Positions 36,901-42,669 of a DNA stretch of 64,000 bases are shown piece after piece. Position 1 is the first letter of the stretch. Each line of letters starts with the position of its first letter. The notes below the pieces were generated by a model that saw nothing but the letters and a program-made list of their open reading frames with translations, was not told the origin of the DNA and did not search any database. Origin of the DNA: an uncultured Solirubrobacterales bacterium (GTDB taxonomy: Bacteria; Actinomycetota; Thermoleophilia; Solirubrobacterales; Thermoleophilaceae); contig OY970240.1 in assembly GCA_963715445.1 (NCBI GenBank), positions 2,008,839-2,072,838 of the forward strand. The letters are read 5' to 3'. The position numbers were made by a program, and so were the translations under genes.

Positions 36901-37437
36901 ATGACCCTATCCGGTAGCGTCGAGCCCGTGGAGCTGGAAGAGGCGATTCGGGGGCGGCGCACGCACAAGGCGTACGTGCCCGAGCCCTTGGAGCGGGAGA
37001 CGCTCGATGAGCTGTTCGATCTCGCGCGCTGGGCGCCGAACCACCACCTGACGAACCCGTGGCGCTTCCGCGTGCTCGGCCCGGAGGCGCTCGCCCGGCT
37101 GAAGCGCGCCGCCGGCCCCGACGCCGCCGCGAAGCTGGATCGCGCGCCGACGCTCGTCTGCGCGTCGGTGAAGATGTCGGGGGACCCGGTGCAGGACGAA
37201 GAGGATCTCTGCGCCGCGGCCTGCGCCGTCTTCATCGTGCTGCTCGCCGCCCACGCGCGTGGCCTGGCCGGCTACTGGCGGACCCCAGGAGTGCTGCGCA
37301 CGCCCGACGGCGCCGCGGCGGTCGGCATGAACGAGGACGAGCTCTTCGTGGCGCTGATCCACCTCGGCCACGCTCGCCAGGAGAAGGAGCCGCCCGAGCG
37401 GCTGCCACCCGCGGACTTCGTCTCCTACCTCTCGTGA
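36901..37437 (+). CDS. Nitroreductase family protein
   Basis: RRTHKAYVPEPL...LARWAPNHHLTNPWRF. Confidence 0.75.
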   Translation: MTLSGSVEPVELEEAIRGRRTHKAYVPEPLERETLDELFDLARWAPNHHLTNPWRFRVLGPEALARLKRAAGPDAAAKLDRAPTLVCASVKMSGDPVQDEEDLCAAACAVFIVLLAAHARGLAGYWRTPGVLRTPDGAAAVGMNEDELFVALIHLGHARQEKEPPERLPPADFVSYLS

Positions 37438-39140
37438 TCTCCCGCGCCACCGCACTGACCGCCCTGGAGCGCGACGAGTTCGACGTCGTCGTGATCGGCG
37501 GAGGGATCACCGGCGCGGGCGTCGCGCTCGACGCGGCCTCGCGCGGCTACACGGTCGCGGTGGTCGAGAAGGCCGACTACGCGGCCGGCACGTCGAGCCG
37601 CTCGTCGAAGCTGATCCACGGCGGCCTGCGCTACCTGCAGAACTTCGATCTAGGTCTGGTGCGCGAGGCGCTGCTCGAGCGCCAGCTGCTGGTCAACCTC
37701 GCGCCCCACCTGGTGCGGCCGCTGCCGCTTCTGATCCCCGCCTTCGAGGGCCGCCGCCCGGATCGAGTCACCGGCGTCGGGCTGAACATGTACGACGTCA
37801 TGGCCACCGAACGCCGGCGCCGACGCGGCGGCGGTGGGGCCGACGAGGCCAAGCGACGCCGCTCCAGCGAGGACGAGTGGAGCCCCGAGCGCCACCGCAC
37901 GATTGACGCCGAGGAGACGCTCGAGCTGCTGCCTGCGCTCGCGTCCCGGAGTCCAACCGCCTCGTACCTCTTCTACGACTGCCAGACCGACGACGTGCGC
38001 CTGGTGCTCACGATCCTGGGCGAGGCCGAGCGCTACGGCGCCGTCTGCGCCAACTCGGTCGAGGTGGCGGGCCTCGTGGAGCGCGACGGGCGCGCGGCCG
38101 GGGTGCTGTGCCGCGATGCGATCGGCGGCGGCGAGTTCGAGGTCGCGGCCACGAACGTGGTCAATGCCACAGGCGTCTGGGCCGACCGGATCCGACCGGA
38201 CGAGCTGCACGCAGAGGCCGAGGTGCCGAAGATCCGCCCGAGCCGCGGCACCCACGTCACCGTCTCGGCGGAGCAGCTCCCGGTGGTCGCAGGGGCGATC
38301 GTCCCGGCGGGCAGCGGCCGCTCGATCTTCGTCCTGCCCTGGCTCGGCCGCACCCTGATCGGCACTACCGACAACAACTACGAGGGGGGCCTCGACCACA
38401 TCCCTCCCGCGGAGGAGGACATCGAGTACCTGCTCGACGCCACCAACGAGTTCTTCGCCACCTCCCTGACGGCGTCCGACCTGACCGGCGCCTACGCCGG
38501 CGTGCGCCCGCTGATCTCGACCGGGGACCCGAAGAAGTCGGTCGACATCTCGCGCAAGGCGGAGCTCTACGAGACGAGCTCGGGCCTCGTGACGATCACC
38601 GGCGGCAAGCTCACCACCTGGCGGCGGATGGCCAAGATGGCGGTCGATCGGATCGTGGAGCGCGAAGGTCGCCAAGCGCCCTGCCGCACCGCCGAGATCC
38701 CCCTCGGGATGAGCGTCGAGCCGGAGGACCTGCCGGAGGTCGAGGGCGTGGGGGAGGAGACGCGGCGGATGCTCGCCGGCCGCTACGGCTACGCGGCGCA
38801 CGAGGTGCTCCAGCTGGCCGCTTCGGATCCGGCGCTGGCGCAGCGGATCAGCCCCGAGCTCCCGGATCTCGTAGCGGAGGCGTCCTTCGCCGCGAAGCGC
38901 GAGCAGGCGCGCGGTCTCGCCGATGTCCTGCTGCGCCGCACCCGCCTCGGCCTGCTCGATGCTCCGGCCCTCACTAAGGAGGGCGCCGAGGGCCCCAGGG
39001 CGGCGGCTCAGGCGATGGCGACCGTCCTCGGCTGGGACTCGGCGCGGATCGAGGCGGAGCTGCTCGACTGGCGCGACATCGCCGCGCGCGAGGGCCTCGT
39101 GCCGGGCGCCCCGGTTCCGCAGCCCGCCGAGTCGGCATGA
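37434..39140 (+). CDS. glpD: FAD-dependent glycerol-3-phosphate dehydrogenase/oxidase
   Basis: FDVVVIGGGITGAGVALDAASRGYTVAVVEKADYAAGTSSRSSKLIHGGLRYL. GTG at 37434 overlaps the nitroreductase stop (GTGA). Confidence 0.85.
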   Translation: MISRATALTALERDEFDVVVIGGGITGAGVALDAASRGYTVAVVEKADYAAGTSSRSSKLIHGGLRYLQNFDLGLVREALLERQLLVNLAPHLVRPLPLLIPAFEGRRPDRVTGVGLNMYDVMATERRRRRGGGGADEAKRRRSSEDEWSPERHRTIDAEETLELLPALASRSPTASYLFYDCQTDDVRLVLTILGEAERYGAVCANSVEVAGLVERDGRAAGVLCRDAIGGGEFEVAATNVVNATGVWADRIRPDELHAEAEVPKIRPSRGTHVTVSAEQLPVVAGAIVPAGSGRSIFVLPWLGRTLIGTTDNNYEGGLDHIPPAEEDIEYLLDATNEFFATSLTASDLTGAYAGVRPLISTGDPKKSVDISRKAELYETSSGLVTITGGKLTTWRRMAKMAVDRIVEREGRQAPCRTAEIPLGMSVEPEDLPEVEGVGEETRRMLAGRYGYAAHEVLQLAASDPALAQRISPELPDLVAEASFAAKREQARGLADVLLRRTRLGLLDAPALTKEGAEGPRAAAQAMATVLGWDSARIEAELLDWRDIAAREGLVPGAPVPQPAESA

Positions 39141-40024
39141 GGCTGCGGCTGCGCGACGCCACGTTGGACTTGGCGCCCGCGAAGCCGCTCCTGATGGGCA
39201 TCGTCAACGCCACGCCGGACTCGTTCTCGGACGAGCCGGGGGCGAAGCCGCTCGACGTGCTGGTGGAGCGGGGCTTGGCGCTCGCTGCGGCGGGCGCTGC
39301 GATCGTCGACGTGGGCGGCGAGTCCGGCCGCACGGACAGCGAGGCCGTCAGCGAGGACGAGGAGATCTCGCGGGTCGCACCGCTCGTGGAACGCCTGGCC
39401 GCCGAGGGCGTCGTCGTGTCGGTGGACACCTGGCGCGTCCCCGTGGCCCGTGAGGCGCTCGCCGCGGGCGCGGGCTTGATCAACGACGTCAGCGGCCTGA
39501 GCGATCCGGACATCGCGACGGCCTGCGCCGAGACGGGTGCAGGCCTCGTCATCACCCACACGCGCGCGGCGCCCAAGACGAAGGCGTTCCCCACCTACGA
39601 CGACGTGGTGGCGGACGTCTGCGCCCTGCTCTCGGAGCGCGTGGCGCAGGCAGAGGAGCGCGGCGTCGAGCCCGACCAGCTGCTGCTCGACCCGGGGATC
39701 GACCTCGCCAAGACTCCCGCGGAGTCGATCGAGATCCTGCGCCGCCTGCCGGAGCTCGAATACCTCGGCCGGCCGCTGCTGCTCGCCATCTCGCGCAAGG
39801 ACTTCGTCGGGGCGCTCACCGGGCGCCCGCCGGCCGGTCGCGGGGCCGGAACTCTCGGCGCCGTGGAGCCCGCACTCGGCTTCGCCGGCGGGACCGTGCT
39901 GCGCGTGCACGACGTGGAGGCGACCGCCGACTTCCTCGCAGTCCGCTCCGCGCTGCGCGGCGAGGCGCCGCTTCCCGCGGGCCCCCTCGACGAGCTGCTG
40001 CGCCGCGAGCGGGATCCCGCCTGA
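39137..40024 (+). CDS. folP: Dihydropteroate synthase
   Basis: LMGIVNATPDSFSD, IVDVGGES, LINDVSG, LLLDPGIDLAKT, ISRKDF, VLRVHDV. ATGA overlap with glpD. Confidence 0.9.
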   Translation: MRLRLRDATLDLAPAKPLLMGIVNATPDSFSDEPGAKPLDVLVERGLALAAAGAAIVDVGGESGRTDSEAVSEDEEISRVAPLVERLAAEGVVVSVDTWRVPVAREALAAGAGLINDVSGLSDPDIATACAETGAGLVITHTRAAPKTKAFPTYDDVVADVCALLSERVAQAEERGVEPDQLLLDPGIDLAKTPAESIEILRRLPELEYLGRPLLLAISRKDFVGALTGRPPAGRGAGTLGAVEPALGFAGGTVLRVHDVEATADFLAVRSALRGEAPLPAGPLDELLRRERDPA

Positions 40025-40118
40025 GCGCTCAGGCGAGCCTCGCCAGTCCGGCGTGCCAGTCGGCCGAGTAGCCTTCGCCGCTCACTTCACGACGACGAAC
40101 CACCAAGGAGCAGCCTCA

Positions 40119-41300
40119 GTGTCAGTCCTTCAGCGCAAGGAGCTCGAAGACAGCCCGCTTGCCGATCTTCACGCCATCGCCTCCGAGCTGGGCGTCGAGG
40201 GCTATCGCGGGCTGCGCCGCGAGGACCTGATCGCCGCCGTCCTCAAAGTGCAGGGCGGAGATTCCGAGCCCGATTCCGGTTCCGATGTGGACTCCGAGCC
40301 CGAGCCGTCCCGCATCCGCAGAGCGAGAAGCCGAGGTCGGGGCAGGGGCCGCGGGCGCGGCACGCGCGATTCCGAGGACTCCGGCGAGGAGGCCGAGTCG
40401 GGCACAGCCGCCGCCAGCCCACGTGCCGCCGACGACCGCGAGGACGATGAGGAGCCCGCTGACGCCGCACCCGACGCCGACGCCGAGATCGTCACGGGCA
40501 CGCTCGACGTGCTCACCAACGGCAGCGGCTTCCTGCGCGTCGAGGGAGAGGGCAAGGACGTCTACGTATCTCCCGCGCAGATCCGCCGCTGCGAGCTGCG
40601 CGCGGGCGACGAGGTGACCGGGCCGGTGCGTCCGCCCCGTCGCAACGAGCGCCATCCCTCGCTCGTGCGCGTCGAGCAGATCAACGGGCTCGACGCCGAG
40701 GCGCCCGAGCAGCGGGCGAAATTCTCCCAGCTGACGGCCGTCCATGCGACCGAGCGCCTCAGCGCGCCGTCGCTGCTCGAGTCCGTGCCCTTCGGCAAGG
40801 GCTCCCGAGTGGCCGTCGCCGGCGTGTCCGGCGCGGGCGCGACGCGGGTCCTGCGCGAGATCGTGGCTGCGCTGACCGCCGATCAGGGCGACCTCTCCGT
40901 GAGCGTCGTGCTCGCCGGAGCGCGTCCTGAGGAGGTCACCGAGTGGCAGCGCGAGGGTGGCGCGCCGATCTCCGGCGGCTCCTTCGACATCAGCCCCGAT
41001 GAAGCGGCCCAGGCCGCCGAGCTCGCGGTAGAGCGCGCCAAGCGAGTGGTCGAGCGGGGCGGCGACGCCGTCGTCGTGGTCGATTCCCTCGCCGTGCTCA
41101 ACCCCGGTGCCGCGCGACGCCTCTTCGGCGCCGGGCGCAAGGCCGAGGAGGGCGGATCGCTGACCGTGATCGCCGCGGTGGGCGACAACTCGGAGCACCT
41201 GCGGATCGCGAGCACGCGCATCGTGCTGGAGCCCGGGAAGTCCGGTCCCGCCGTCGTGGCGAATCGCTCGGGGACGCTGCGCGCAGACCTGCTCAGCTGA
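40119..41300 (+). CDS. Rho-like protein: Rho_N plus RG/acidic linker plus cold-shock-like RNA-binding domain plus degenerate, shortened RecA/ATPase domain
   Basis: LADLHAIASELGVEGYRGLRREDLIAAVLK, GTLDVLTNGSGFLRVEG...VYVSPAQIRRCELRAGDEVTG. The P-loop position reads AGVSGAGAT (no Lys). ARPEEVTEW, VVVVDSL, EEGGSLTVIAAV, NRSGTLRADLLS-stop. GTG at 40119 after AAGGAG. Confidence 0.7.
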   Translation: MSVLQRKELEDSPLADLHAIASELGVEGYRGLRREDLIAAVLKVQGGDSEPDSGSDVDSEPEPSRIRRARSRGRGRGRGRGTRDSEDSGEEAESGTAAASPRAADDREDDEEPADAAPDADAEIVTGTLDVLTNGSGFLRVEGEGKDVYVSPAQIRRCELRAGDEVTGPVRPPRRNERHPSLVRVEQINGLDAEAPEQRAKFSQLTAVHATERLSAPSLLESVPFGKGSRVAVAGVSGAGATRVLREIVAALTADQGDLSVSVVLAGARPEEVTEWQREGGAPISGGSFDISPDEAAQAAELAVERAKRVVERGGDAVVVVDSLAVLNPGAARRLFGAGRKAEEGGSLTVIAAVGDNSEHLRIASTRIVLEPGKSGPAVVANRSGTLRADLLS

Positions 41301-41318: not shown

Positions 41319-42044
41319 GTGCGCCGCGAGCCTCGCCCGCCGACCACTCCCGATGAGGAGCTCCTGGAGGCCGAGACCCTTGCGGTCCTCTCAGAGCTCG
41401 ACGACAAGGCACGGGTCGAGAGGGTCAGGGCCGAGCTCGCGGACGGGTTCGCGGCGCTGGCCCACGTCGGCAAGGCGATCTCGATCTTCGGCTCGGCGCG
41501 CACGTTCCCCGGGCACCCCGAGTACGAGCAGGCGCGTGCGCTGGCGCGGCGCCTGGGCGAGGAGGGCTTCGCGATCATCACCGGCGGCGGCCCCGGCACG
41601 ATGGAGGCCGCCAACCGCGGCGCGCGCGACGCCGGCGCGGTGTCGATCGGGCTGGCGATAGACCTACCCCACGAGGAGGGAGCCAACTCCTACGCCGACA
41701 TCGCCCTCCGCTTCCACTACTTCTTCGTGCGCAAGGTGATGTTCGTCCGCTACGCGAGCGGCTTCGTCGTCTTCCCCGGAGGCTTCGGCACGCTCGACGA
41801 GCTCTTCGAGGCCGCCACCCTGCGCCAGACCGAGAAGATCCGCCACTTCCCGATCGCGCTCGTGGGCACGAGCTACTGGGGCGGCCTGGTGGACTGGCTG
41901 CGGGACACTGTCCTCGCCGAGGGCAAGATCTCGCCGTCCGACGTGGACACGCTCGAGGTCACCGACGACTCGGAGCGGGTGCTGGAGGCGATGCGCACGG
42001 TGGAGCACCGCCGCCCGCGCGTGGTGCCGGAGGACCCGGCCTAA
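41319..42044 (+). CDS. LOG family (TIGR00730) nucleotide phosphoribohydrolase
   Basis: SIFGSAR, ITGGGPGTMEAANRGA, PGGFGTLDELFE. Confidence 0.85.
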   Translation: MRREPRPPTTPDEELLEAETLAVLSELDDKARVERVRAELADGFAALAHVGKAISIFGSARTFPGHPEYEQARALARRLGEEGFAIITGGGPGTMEAANRGARDAGAVSIGLAIDLPHEEGANSYADIALRFHYFFVRKVMFVRYASGFVVFPGGFGTLDELFEAATLRQTEKIRHFPIALVGTSYWGGLVDWLRDTVLAEGKISPSDVDTLEVTDDSERVLEAMRTVEHRRPRVVPEDPA

Positions 42045-42047
42045 GCC

Positions 42048-42509
42048 CTAGCCGCGGTAGGCGACGCGCTTCCAGGACGGCTCGGGGGAGAGCTCGATCA
42101 GCTCCCAGTCCCGATCCGGCTGGGCGTATCCGAACGAGTGGTCGGCGTCGTCGAAGACGACCTCCAGCTCACCCTCGAGCACGCGCTGATCCAGCCAGGC
42201 GCCCCGGAAGACCAGGCGGCGCAGCCAGTGCACGAGCGAGCGGTCGGCGGGGCCGTGGAGATCGCTCCAGCAGTCCATGACGTGCTGGCCGAGACTCGAG
42301 TGGGCGTCGGTCACCTCGCCGTTCACAGCCAGGTTGACCAGGTCCTCGCGCTCCTCTTCGCCGAGCAGGCCGCCCACGAACCCGAGCTTGGTGGCCGCCT
42401 GCTCCACGCGCTCGGTGAAGTCGCGCTCGTTGAAGGTGAACCGCAGCTCACCGTACTCGAGCACGTAGTCGGCGCCCGACTCGTAATTTCCACGCTTGGT
42501 CAAGTCCAT
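42048..42509 (-). CDS. Hypothetical cytoplasmic protein
   Basis: ORF 42048..42536, acidic with balanced composition. ATG at 42509 preferred over the upstream TTG. Confidence 0.5.
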   Translation of the reverse strand: MDLTKRGNYESGADYVLEYGELRFTFNERDFTERVEQAATKLGFVGGLLGEEEREDLVNLAVNGEVTDAHSSLGQHVMDCWSDLHGPADRSLVHWLRRLVFRGAWLDQRVLEGELEVVFDDADHSFGYAQPDRDWELIELSPEPSWKRVAYRG

Positions 42510-42669
42510 GGGGTCAATGCGTTCCGGGCCGAGCAAGAAGAGCGCCCGGCGGGTGGCCGCGTCGGCATCCTAATCCCGATCCCTTCATCTACGGACGTAT
42601 TGCAACGTCACTTGCACAGGGACGGCGGGGGCCGGGGGAGAACATCGAGCGTTTGGTGCTGAAGAGGGC

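Follow-up and report, generated by a model that had tools for sequence, protein, structure and literature searches.

A Rho orthologue of the Solirubrobacterales that has kept its RNA-binding half and probably lost its motor

RESULTS

The rho-like gene and its RNA-binding half

The window analysed here, a 64,000-nucleotide (nt) stretch of contig OY970240.1 (positions 2,008,839 to 2,072,838; assembly GCA_963715445.1) from an uncultured Solirubrobacterales bacterium of the family Thermoleophilaceae, carries a gene for a protein of 393 amino acids (aa) related to the transcription termination factor Rho. The product had been predicted, from the letters of the sequence, to combine an intact RNA-binding half with a dead, shortened ATPase half. 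The features of the gene, of its product and of the adjacent genes are collected in Table 1. The GTG start codon was supported by the consensus N-terminus of 110 homologues (MSVLQRKELE), and the next gene begins 19 nt past the stop codon, which leaves no room for a hidden C-terminus.

The RNA-binding half was found to be intact. Both the Rho_N helix bundle and the oligonucleotide/oligosaccharide-binding (OB) cold-shock domain were recognized, and the alignment showed that the primary-site residues F64, R66, Y80, E108 and R109 are retained, with F62 replaced by S and Y110 by H (E. coli numbering, used below for all motif residues unless stated otherwise). The insert between the two domains, which contains an arginine-glycine (RG) repeat, was the fastest-evolving part of the protein, with 31-84% identity within the genus. 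AlphaFold2 assigned its residues 48-115 a predicted local distance difference test score (pLDDT) below 50.

Table 1. Features of the rho-like gene, its product and the adjacent genes (positions in the window)
Feature	Residues (aa)	Position	Strand	Remarks
Putative motor-dead Rho orthologue	1-393	40119..41300	+	393 aa; GTG start; TGA stop at 41298-41300; one open reading frame (ORF)
Shine-Dalgarno AAGGAG		40105..40110	+	8 nt 5' of the GTG at 40119; sequence reading
Rho_N helix bundle	8-45	40140..40253	+	Pfam PF07498, 47.6 bits; AlphaFold2 helices 6-44, pLDDT ~95
Disordered insert	48-122	40260..40484	+	RG repeat RARSRGRGRGRGRGTR, then acidic tract; actinobacterial 'Type 2' insertion
Cold-shock/OB primary RNA-binding domain (Rho_RNA_bind)	126-194	40494..40700	+	Pfam PF07497, 80.1 bits
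Trimmed RecA-like core	223-393	40785..41297	+	~170 aa vs ~250 aa in canonical Rho
Degenerate P-loop GVSGAGAT	235-242	40821..40844	+	K181 to G, K184 to A; T185 retained
GARPEE	267-272	40917..40934	+	D210 to G, catalytic E211 to A (VLAGARPEE); R212, E214 and E215 retained, family-invariant
Walker B strand VVVVDS	318-323	41070..41087	+	D265 retained (D322 of the window protein, invariant in 110 homologues)
Q-loop deletion site LAVLNPGAA	324-332	41088..41114	+	R269 (arginine valve) to V
C-terminal NRSGTLRADLLS, then stop codon		41262..41300	+	arginine finger R366 to L; next residue, R388 of the window protein, invariant in the family
folP (dihydropteroate synthase), 5' neighbour		39137..40024	+	Pfam Pterin_bind
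LOG/'lysine decarboxylase'-family gene, 3' neighbour		41319..42044	+	Pfam PF03641
Gene for a 162-aa protein		42048-42536	-	convergent to the rho-like/LOG pair

The RecA-like half lacks the catalytic residues and the central-channel loops

We have mapped the motifs of the C-terminal half by alignment to E. coli Rho (from MG1655) and to 22 canonical actinobacterial Rhos, in all 22 of which K181, K184, T185, D210, E211, R212, D265, R269, S/T286, K/R326 and R366 are invariant. The Walker A motif reads GVSGAGAT, as predicted, with neither K181 nor K184 of the GxxxxGK[TS] signature present. The DE of DERPEE had been predicted to read AG; the substitution itself was borne out, the letters were not, the actual pair being GA preceded by another A, and the conclusion is unchanged. 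Among the catalytic glutamate E211, the R212/R269 valve and the R366 finger, R212 alone was retained.

The secondary RNA-binding site was missing as well. None of the 13 Q-loop residues (278-290) was found, the loop lying inside a deletion of ~22 aa that corresponds to the predicted shortening between Walker B and the arginine finger, and the R-loop segment (322-326) was shortened and without Lys or Arg, K326 being gone. The alignment also revealed a 9-aa deletion just 5' of the P-loop region and two further small deletions. The chain ends 47 aa short of the end of E. coli Rho, so that an early stop had been predicted correctly and its extent (about 60 aa) had not.

The original prediction had proposed to align the protein to Rho profiles, to search the complete genome for a canonical rho and to survey the variant phylogenetically, and all three have been done. 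In the profile alignments, Rho_N and Rho_RNA_bind scored above the cut-off and ATP-synt_ab below it (19.9 bits vs a gathering cut-off of 29.5). The scores of the whole-protein Rho models TIGR00767 (194.7 bits vs a cut-off of 509.45) and NF006886 (193.5 vs 315) also remained below threshold, and the alignments to these Rho equivalog models span model positions 3-267 only. A sequence search of the PDB matched the Rho proteins of E. coli, T. maritima and M. tuberculosis, in alignments that break just past Walker B and pick up again at RFFGAARNVEEGGSLT.

AlphaFold2, run with a 110-sequence alignment, gave a mean pLDDT of 83.4, with values of ~90-97 for the domains outside the insert and of 88-97 for the RecA-like core (residues 223-393). 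When the model was compared with the PDB by Foldseek, the top matches were all Rho chains (8Q3P, 5JJI, 3ICE, 6DUQ and 7OQH), with E ~1e-27, a query TM-score (TMq) of 0.62 and a root-mean-square deviation (rmsd) of ~3 A over ~320 columns. Its predicted structure places the C-terminal half among the RecA-like domains of the Rho type, in trimmed form. Alignment, fold prediction and the family statistics given below agree that the ATPase half is shortened and devoid of its catalytic residues.

The degenerate motifs are shared by hundreds of species and the remnant is under selection

A database search returned thousands of matches; our statistics were drawn from the best 120 (360-429 aa, 56-92% identical) and from an alignment of 110. 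These homologues are named 'transcription termination factor Rho' (JGI) or 'Rho termination factor N-terminal domain-containing protein [Thermoleophilaceae bacterium]' (NCBI) in their sources. Among the best 120, GxxGAGAT and (A/V)G(A/V)RPEE were nearly invariant. The 110-homologue alignment contained 75 invariant and ~100 nearly invariant columns, the former including G235, G240, R269, P270, E271, D322, G346, T349, S384 and R388 (window-protein numbering), and the homologues from the genus all end at ...ADLL-x, as the window protein does.

A scan of one genome per species detected relatives in at least 589 species-level genomes. The best 80 of these were inspected, all of them Thermoleophilaceae or Solirubrobacterales metagenome-assembled genomes, and 76 could be parsed. 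The Walker A Lys was present in 0/76 species and the Glu before RPEE in 0/76, the K184 and E211 positions being occupied by Ala, Gly or Val in every one of the 76, and the proteins of this set share one C-terminal end point. Judged from these alignments, the degenerate motifs are neither chance nor sequencing error.

Codon-level comparison of pairs from the genus, among them a 92%-identical homologue of metagenomic origin, yielded ratios of nonsynonymous to synonymous substitution rates (dN/dS) of 0.15-0.38 for the RecA remnant, similar to those of the cold-shock domain (0.06-0.48); with such ratios the remnant is being maintained rather than drifting. Rho_N gave 0.08-0.50 (0.08-0.27 in 7/9 pairs) and was among the lowest regions in most pairs, and the disordered insert gave 0.26-0.83. 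As far as identities between sequences can tell, constraint has shifted: the RecA core, the best-conserved part of canonical Rho, is now diverged, with 36% identity to canonical Rho, where canonical Actinomycetota Rhos are 82% identical to one another and 71% to E. coli. For the cold-shock domain, identity to canonical actinobacterial Rho was 51%, vs 64% among canonical Rhos. A kept fold, lost catalytic residues and purifying selection on what remains are the marks of a pseudoenzyme, here a pseudo-ATPase, and the label that had been proposed for the protein is apt.

No canonical Rho in the genome or the order

The source genome is a single contig of 2.29 Mb, estimated to be 96.6% complete. A Rho-model search of it revealed no second Rho homologue, the only other match being weak (30 bits) and corresponding to AtpD, the ATP synthase beta subunit. 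Across the order, none of 41 genomes (the window genome and 40 relatives) contained a protein reaching the Rho cut-off, and a degenerate homologue was present in 23/23 high-quality genomes. The earlier suggestion of a regulator or poison subunit acting on a canonical Rho encoded elsewhere finds no such partner here.

We have surveyed 151 genomes of the class with a completeness of at least 85%, the families being designated f1 to f13, with f1 that of the window. Families f1, f3, f4 and f5, which belong to the window's order, held degenerate forms only (25/25), and families f8, f10 and f11 held a canonical Rho (~610-667 bits). No Rho RNA-binding domain was detected in the surveyed genomes of f7 (0/26), f9 (0/24), f12 and f13. 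By this survey, Rho is lost outright at least once within the class, beside the motor-dead form. Since f7 and f9 live without Rho, Rho-dependent termination seems to be dispensable in the class. At the level of the phylum, a canonical Rho was found in 38/41 sampled genomes.

Two side observations came from these surveys. Three canonical rho genes of f11 contain in-frame stops (two TGA in G060:C4:511221-512279, one TAA in G091:C39 and one TAA in G121:C77), which could be sequencing errors, pseudogenes or recoding. Another Actinomycetota family holds a degenerate Rho (L154, G215:C1:247800-251200; 271 bits), in which the P-loop reads GVTKGALVT, DERPEE has become DEAPEE (R212 to A) and D265 is replaced by H. 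This protein has a Q-loop and a truncated C-terminus, and it is apparently independent of the clade described next.

Vertical descent and graded decay

In a maximum-likelihood tree of 51 sequences, all 28 from the order formed one clade nested in actinobacterial Rho, with a Shimodaira-Hasegawa-like approximate likelihood ratio test (SH-aLRT) support of 99; the tree came from a 'quick' search, and its long branches call for caution. The stem of the clade is long (0.75 changes per site) and evolution was accelerated. Each family was monophyletic, and f1, f3 and f5 grouped together (99). The rho-like gene, being single copy and nested in the Rho phylogeny, has the properties expected of the lineage's Rho orthologue, and the variant is an order-wide single clade with graded decay (Table 2).

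Table 2. State of the ATPase half in the families of the order
Family	P-loop Lys (K184)	D210, E211, R269	Q-loop, R-loop, R366	C-terminus
f4	K184R (GRT) 6/7; K184A (GAT) 1/7	D-E and R269 kept	lost	C-terminal helices kept
f2	A/T	E211 to V/A	Q-loop replaced or cut; R366 to L 2/3, kept in L007	mostly kept (31-45 aa)
f3	GK[TS] kept (one GRT)	D210G, E211V	Q-loop lost	17-20 aa left
f1 (window)	lost	Glu lost	lost	gone
f5, f6	lost (A/S)	E211 lost (A/T)	lost	gone

In f5 the cold-shock domain has decayed too, and f6 has retained most of the primary-site residues. Nearly all sequences of the order have lost the central-channel RNA loops and the arginine finger, the exception being the f2 sequence L007, which keeps R366. 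Loss of the P-loop Lys and loss of the catalytic Glu are separate events in different families. Because the former losses are near-universal and the latter family-specific, the series would fit a history in which translocation was lost early and constraint on hydrolysis then relaxed.

One f3 locus (L054, G026:C1:303000-306500) contains a rho-like ORF that turns into Arg/Pro-rich nonsense right past FGRG, in an open frame of 318 aa. It looks like a frameshift or an assembly error, not a shorter variant.

Genomic neighbourhood

The LOG gene is probably co-transcribed with the rho-like gene, and its position 3' of it is conserved in the genus according to the synteny comparison. Immediately 5' of the rho-like gene (37059-40024), glpD and folP overlap via ATGA (39137-39140). 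Over the whole order, glpD lies next to the rho-like gene, folP being there only in some families, and the gene order glpD-(folP)-rho-like-(LOG)-162-aa gene (convergent)-response regulator is shared and is absent from canonical rho loci. This shared order independently supports the common descent of the order's rho-like genes. No transcription genes were found in the folP/LOG neighbourhood.

The gene for the 162-aa protein adjoins the rho-like gene throughout the order. Its product had no match in Pfam or NCBIfam; the sequence identity is 63-92% within the order and 37-50% at the level of the class. We have considered it as a specific partner of the rho-like protein and rejected it, since it is also found in the canonical-Rho family f10 (26/26) and in the Rho-less f9 (24/24). 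An ancestral rho locus was likewise sought: the genes that flank canonical rho in sister families map to two unlinked places here, with no rho remnant, which makes synteny of the canonical locus uninformative.

Terminators and transcription context

Intrinsic terminators were scanned for by a custom hairpin-plus-U-tract search at gene 3' ends, with crude gene calls, in genomes of differing GC content, those of f10, f8 and f9 being represented by 400-kb samples. The window's own genome gave 21 sense, 25 antisense and 8 in-gene sites over 1530 gene ends, which is no more than background. The corresponding counts were 22, 18 and 12 over 336 ends for f10 and 20, 24 and 10 over 299 ends for f8, both with a canonical Rho, and 1, 1 and 2 over 233 ends for f9, without Rho. 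Sense and antisense counts were similar in all four genomes and there was no clear contrast between the Rho classes, a comparison that GC content confounds.

At 36.5-43.5 kb of the window, a separate terminator scan found 1 terminator-like site vs 1.1 expected. In a 400-kb sample of the own genome, the sequences behind stop codons were not enriched in hairpins, their mean folding energy over 60 nt being equal to that within genes. NusG is intact in the genome.

DISCUSSION

The window protein has the domain order of canonical Rho (E. coli P0AG30, PDB 1PV4/3ICE/5JJI; M. tuberculosis 7OQH), including the actinobacterial insert, and has the primary-site residues and the blocks RPEEVT, VVxxDS and EEGGSLTxIA in common with it. 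Unlike canonical Rho, it is without K181, K184, D210, E211, R269, R366, the Q-loop, the R-loop lysine and the C-terminal 47 aa. For E. coli Rho, the main text of a recent survey assigns K184 and T185 to binding of the ATP phosphates and of Mg, E211 to activation of the water, and R366 (acting in trans), R212 and R269 to sensing of the gamma-phosphate; the Q- and R-loops hold the RNA inside the central channel and provide its coupling to hydrolysis (PMC11347177). Because four of these residues and both RNA loops are gone, ATP-driven translocation as it is understood would be impossible. Judged by its residues, the window protein cannot be an ATP-driven translocase in the way Rho is, and we infer that it neither hydrolyses ATP nor threads or translocates RNA.

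The reading that we favour, and regard as probable while well short of certain, is that of a vertically inherited Rho orthologue that has turned into a pseudo-ATPase and is kept as an ATP-independent RNA-binding factor. In canonical Rho, RPEE, VVVxDS and EEGGSLTxIA lie at or near the subunit interface. As the RNA-capturing crown and these interface-type RecA pieces remain, an oligomeric, ATP-independent RNA-binding factor suggests itself, and the protein is probably oligomeric. Nascent RNA that is unstructured, C-rich and untranslated would be captured through the primary sites and the RG tract, and the RecA remnant, with its invariant RPEE loop, Walker B strand and EEGGSLT, would act as an assembly scaffold. 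The assembled protein could then mark or stall elongation complexes without translocating.

Translocation-independent steps are known from published pre-termination complexes of Rho and RNA polymerase (RNAP). A continued action on transcription, by marking or stalling elongation complexes without translocation, appears to be the likeliest role, one that we put forward tentatively; that of a general RNA chaperone or condensate scaffold is the next most likely. A stronger version, which we deem unlikely, would make the motor-less Rho the factor-dependent terminator or silencer of the lineage, inactivating or stalling RNAP without ATP or translocation while anchored on nascent C-rich RNA by the primary sites and the RG tract. 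More speculatively, a phosphate-bearing ligand may still be bound in the pocket and not turned over. This is hinted at by the near-invariance of GxxGAGAT and the retention of T185 and D265, unlike the scrambled loops of f5 and f6.

Several observations weigh against the favoured reading. The P-loop is glycine-rich and conserved, and T185, D265 and R212 survive, so nucleotide binding, and even slow turnover by migrated residues, would be possible from the sequence. The sister family f3 keeps GK[TS] and f4 keeps DE (with GRT), and some of these relatives may retain partial nucleotide chemistry. Nor did the own genome have the surplus of canonical intrinsic terminators that might be expected if termination by Rho had been lost (21 sense vs 25 antisense at 1530 ends, by a crude scan).

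A different outcome of the same losses, which we consider possible and on the whole somewhat unlikely, would be a protein that now serves as an RNA chaperone or condensate scaffold and takes no part in transcription termination, acting in the manner of Hfq or ProQ or by phase separation on mature RNAs. The RNA-binding residues and the RG-rich/acidic disordered insert have been kept while the motor and the secondary-site loops were lost, families of the same class do without any Rho (f7 0/26, f9 0/24), and the folP/LOG neighbourhood is devoid of transcription genes; all this would suit such a role. However, none of it separates a chaperone from an RNAP-linked factor. Rho_N, which in canonical Rho contacts RNA and RNAP partners, shows dN/dS values among the lowest in most pairs, and NusG is intact, both of which point weakly to a continued link to transcription.

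It is very doubtful that the protein is still driven by nucleoside triphosphates (NTPs) through migrated or non-canonical residues, such as R243 after the P-loop Thr or R388 beside the lost finger (both in window-protein numbering). Such an enzyme would account for the P-loop glycines, T185, D265, R212 and R388 being invariant or nearly so and for the GK[TS] of f3 and the D-E of f4. Against this, 76/76 species have Ala, Gly or Val in place of both K184 and E211, no conserved acidic residue stands beside RPEE, the Q- and R-loops that couple RNA to hydrolysis are deleted, and the residues lost are invariant in 22/22 canonical actinobacterial Rhos. Loss of these residues abolishes activity in P-loop NTPases and in E. 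coli Rho mutants.

A decaying relic, that is, a pseudogene in the making after Rho became dispensable, is highly improbable. The long stem branch with its accelerated evolution, the stepwise loss of motifs family by family and the outright loss of Rho in f7 and f9 would be in line with decay, but the frame is intact in all complete order genomes searched, at least 589 species retain the gene, the RecA remnant has a dN/dS of 0.15-0.38 and the alignment 75 invariant columns, the fold is predicted with confidence, and both the start codon and the ribosome-binding site have been conserved. The idea of a poison subunit or regulator mixing into canonical Rho hexamers, discussed for Type 4 paralogues (PMC11347177), is refuted for this genome by the lack of a canonical Rho in its complete sequence and in 40 order relatives, unless a plasmid or an unassembled replicon carries rho.

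Returning to the pseudo-ATPase, some precedents have been described. In the same survey ('Diversification of the Rho transcription termination factor in bacteria', NAR 2024, PMC11347177), Conexibacter woesei and Baekduia soli, both Solirubrobacterales, are the only Actinomycetota listed as 'lacking functional Rho', with 'Rho-like' sequences whose C-terminal half is left unanalysed in the main text. These sequences come from the same class and order neighbourhood as the window protein and, going by this placement and not by comparison of the published sequences themselves, probably belong to the same orthologous group as f1 to f6. There they were treated as an absence of Rho, whereas here the C-terminal half emerges as a conserved, selected RecA-like remnant with specific motif losses, order-wide and in hundreds of species. 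According to the survey, the ATPase domain is the most conserved part of Rho and tolerates no large deletions (PMC11347177); going by its main text, this conclusion holds only since proteins such as these were filtered out.

The 'Group B' or Type 4 short Rho paralogues (NF041509 paralog_Rho2; Streptomyces and others) are also atypical, shortened Rho relatives of Actinomycetota. They are described as being without the N-terminal domain, as keeping the catalytic and bicyclomycin-pocket residues, and as coexisting with a full Rho (PMC11347177). The window protein, by contrast, keeps its N-terminus, loses the catalytic residues and is single copy; with Rho_N present, the catalytic residues absent and an NF041509 score of 142 bits vs a cut-off of 628, it falls outside that family. 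Our literature search for motor-dead Rho orthologues found nothing beyond PMC11347177. What was already known in 2024 is that two species of the order are 'lacking functional Rho'; what is new is a lineage-wide, selected, motor-dead orthologue. Relative to the original prediction, the comparisons made here add that the protein is an order-wide orthologue with graded decay, and that the arginine finger, the arginine valve and the R-loop lysine are lost as well. Both names under which these proteins are currently annotated, 'transcription termination factor Rho' by JGI and 'Rho N-terminal domain-containing protein' by NCBI, are inaccurate.

The usual picture of Rho is that of a ring translocase which depends on ATP as an obligate motor. 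An order-wide motor-dead Rho under selection contradicts this picture: the Rho scaffold seems to have a motor-free job in these soil Actinomycetota, an abundant order in which at least 589 species-level genomes carry relatives. The families preserve steps of the dismantling, namely K184R with E211 kept, GKT kept without E211, and both lost together with C-terminal truncation. They provide a natural series for studying the motor-independent functions of Rho, such as RNA binding, RNAP and NusG contacts, and condensates. How transcription ends in a lineage with neither a canonical Rho nor evident canonical intrinsic terminators becomes a testable question. If the protein were indeed a motor-less terminator or silencer, nature would have provided a separation-of-function experiment for the debate between allosteric and RNA-tracking termination. 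Together with the apparently independent case of L154, these proteins would make 'pseudo-Rho' a recurrent evolutionary outcome rather than an annotation oddity.

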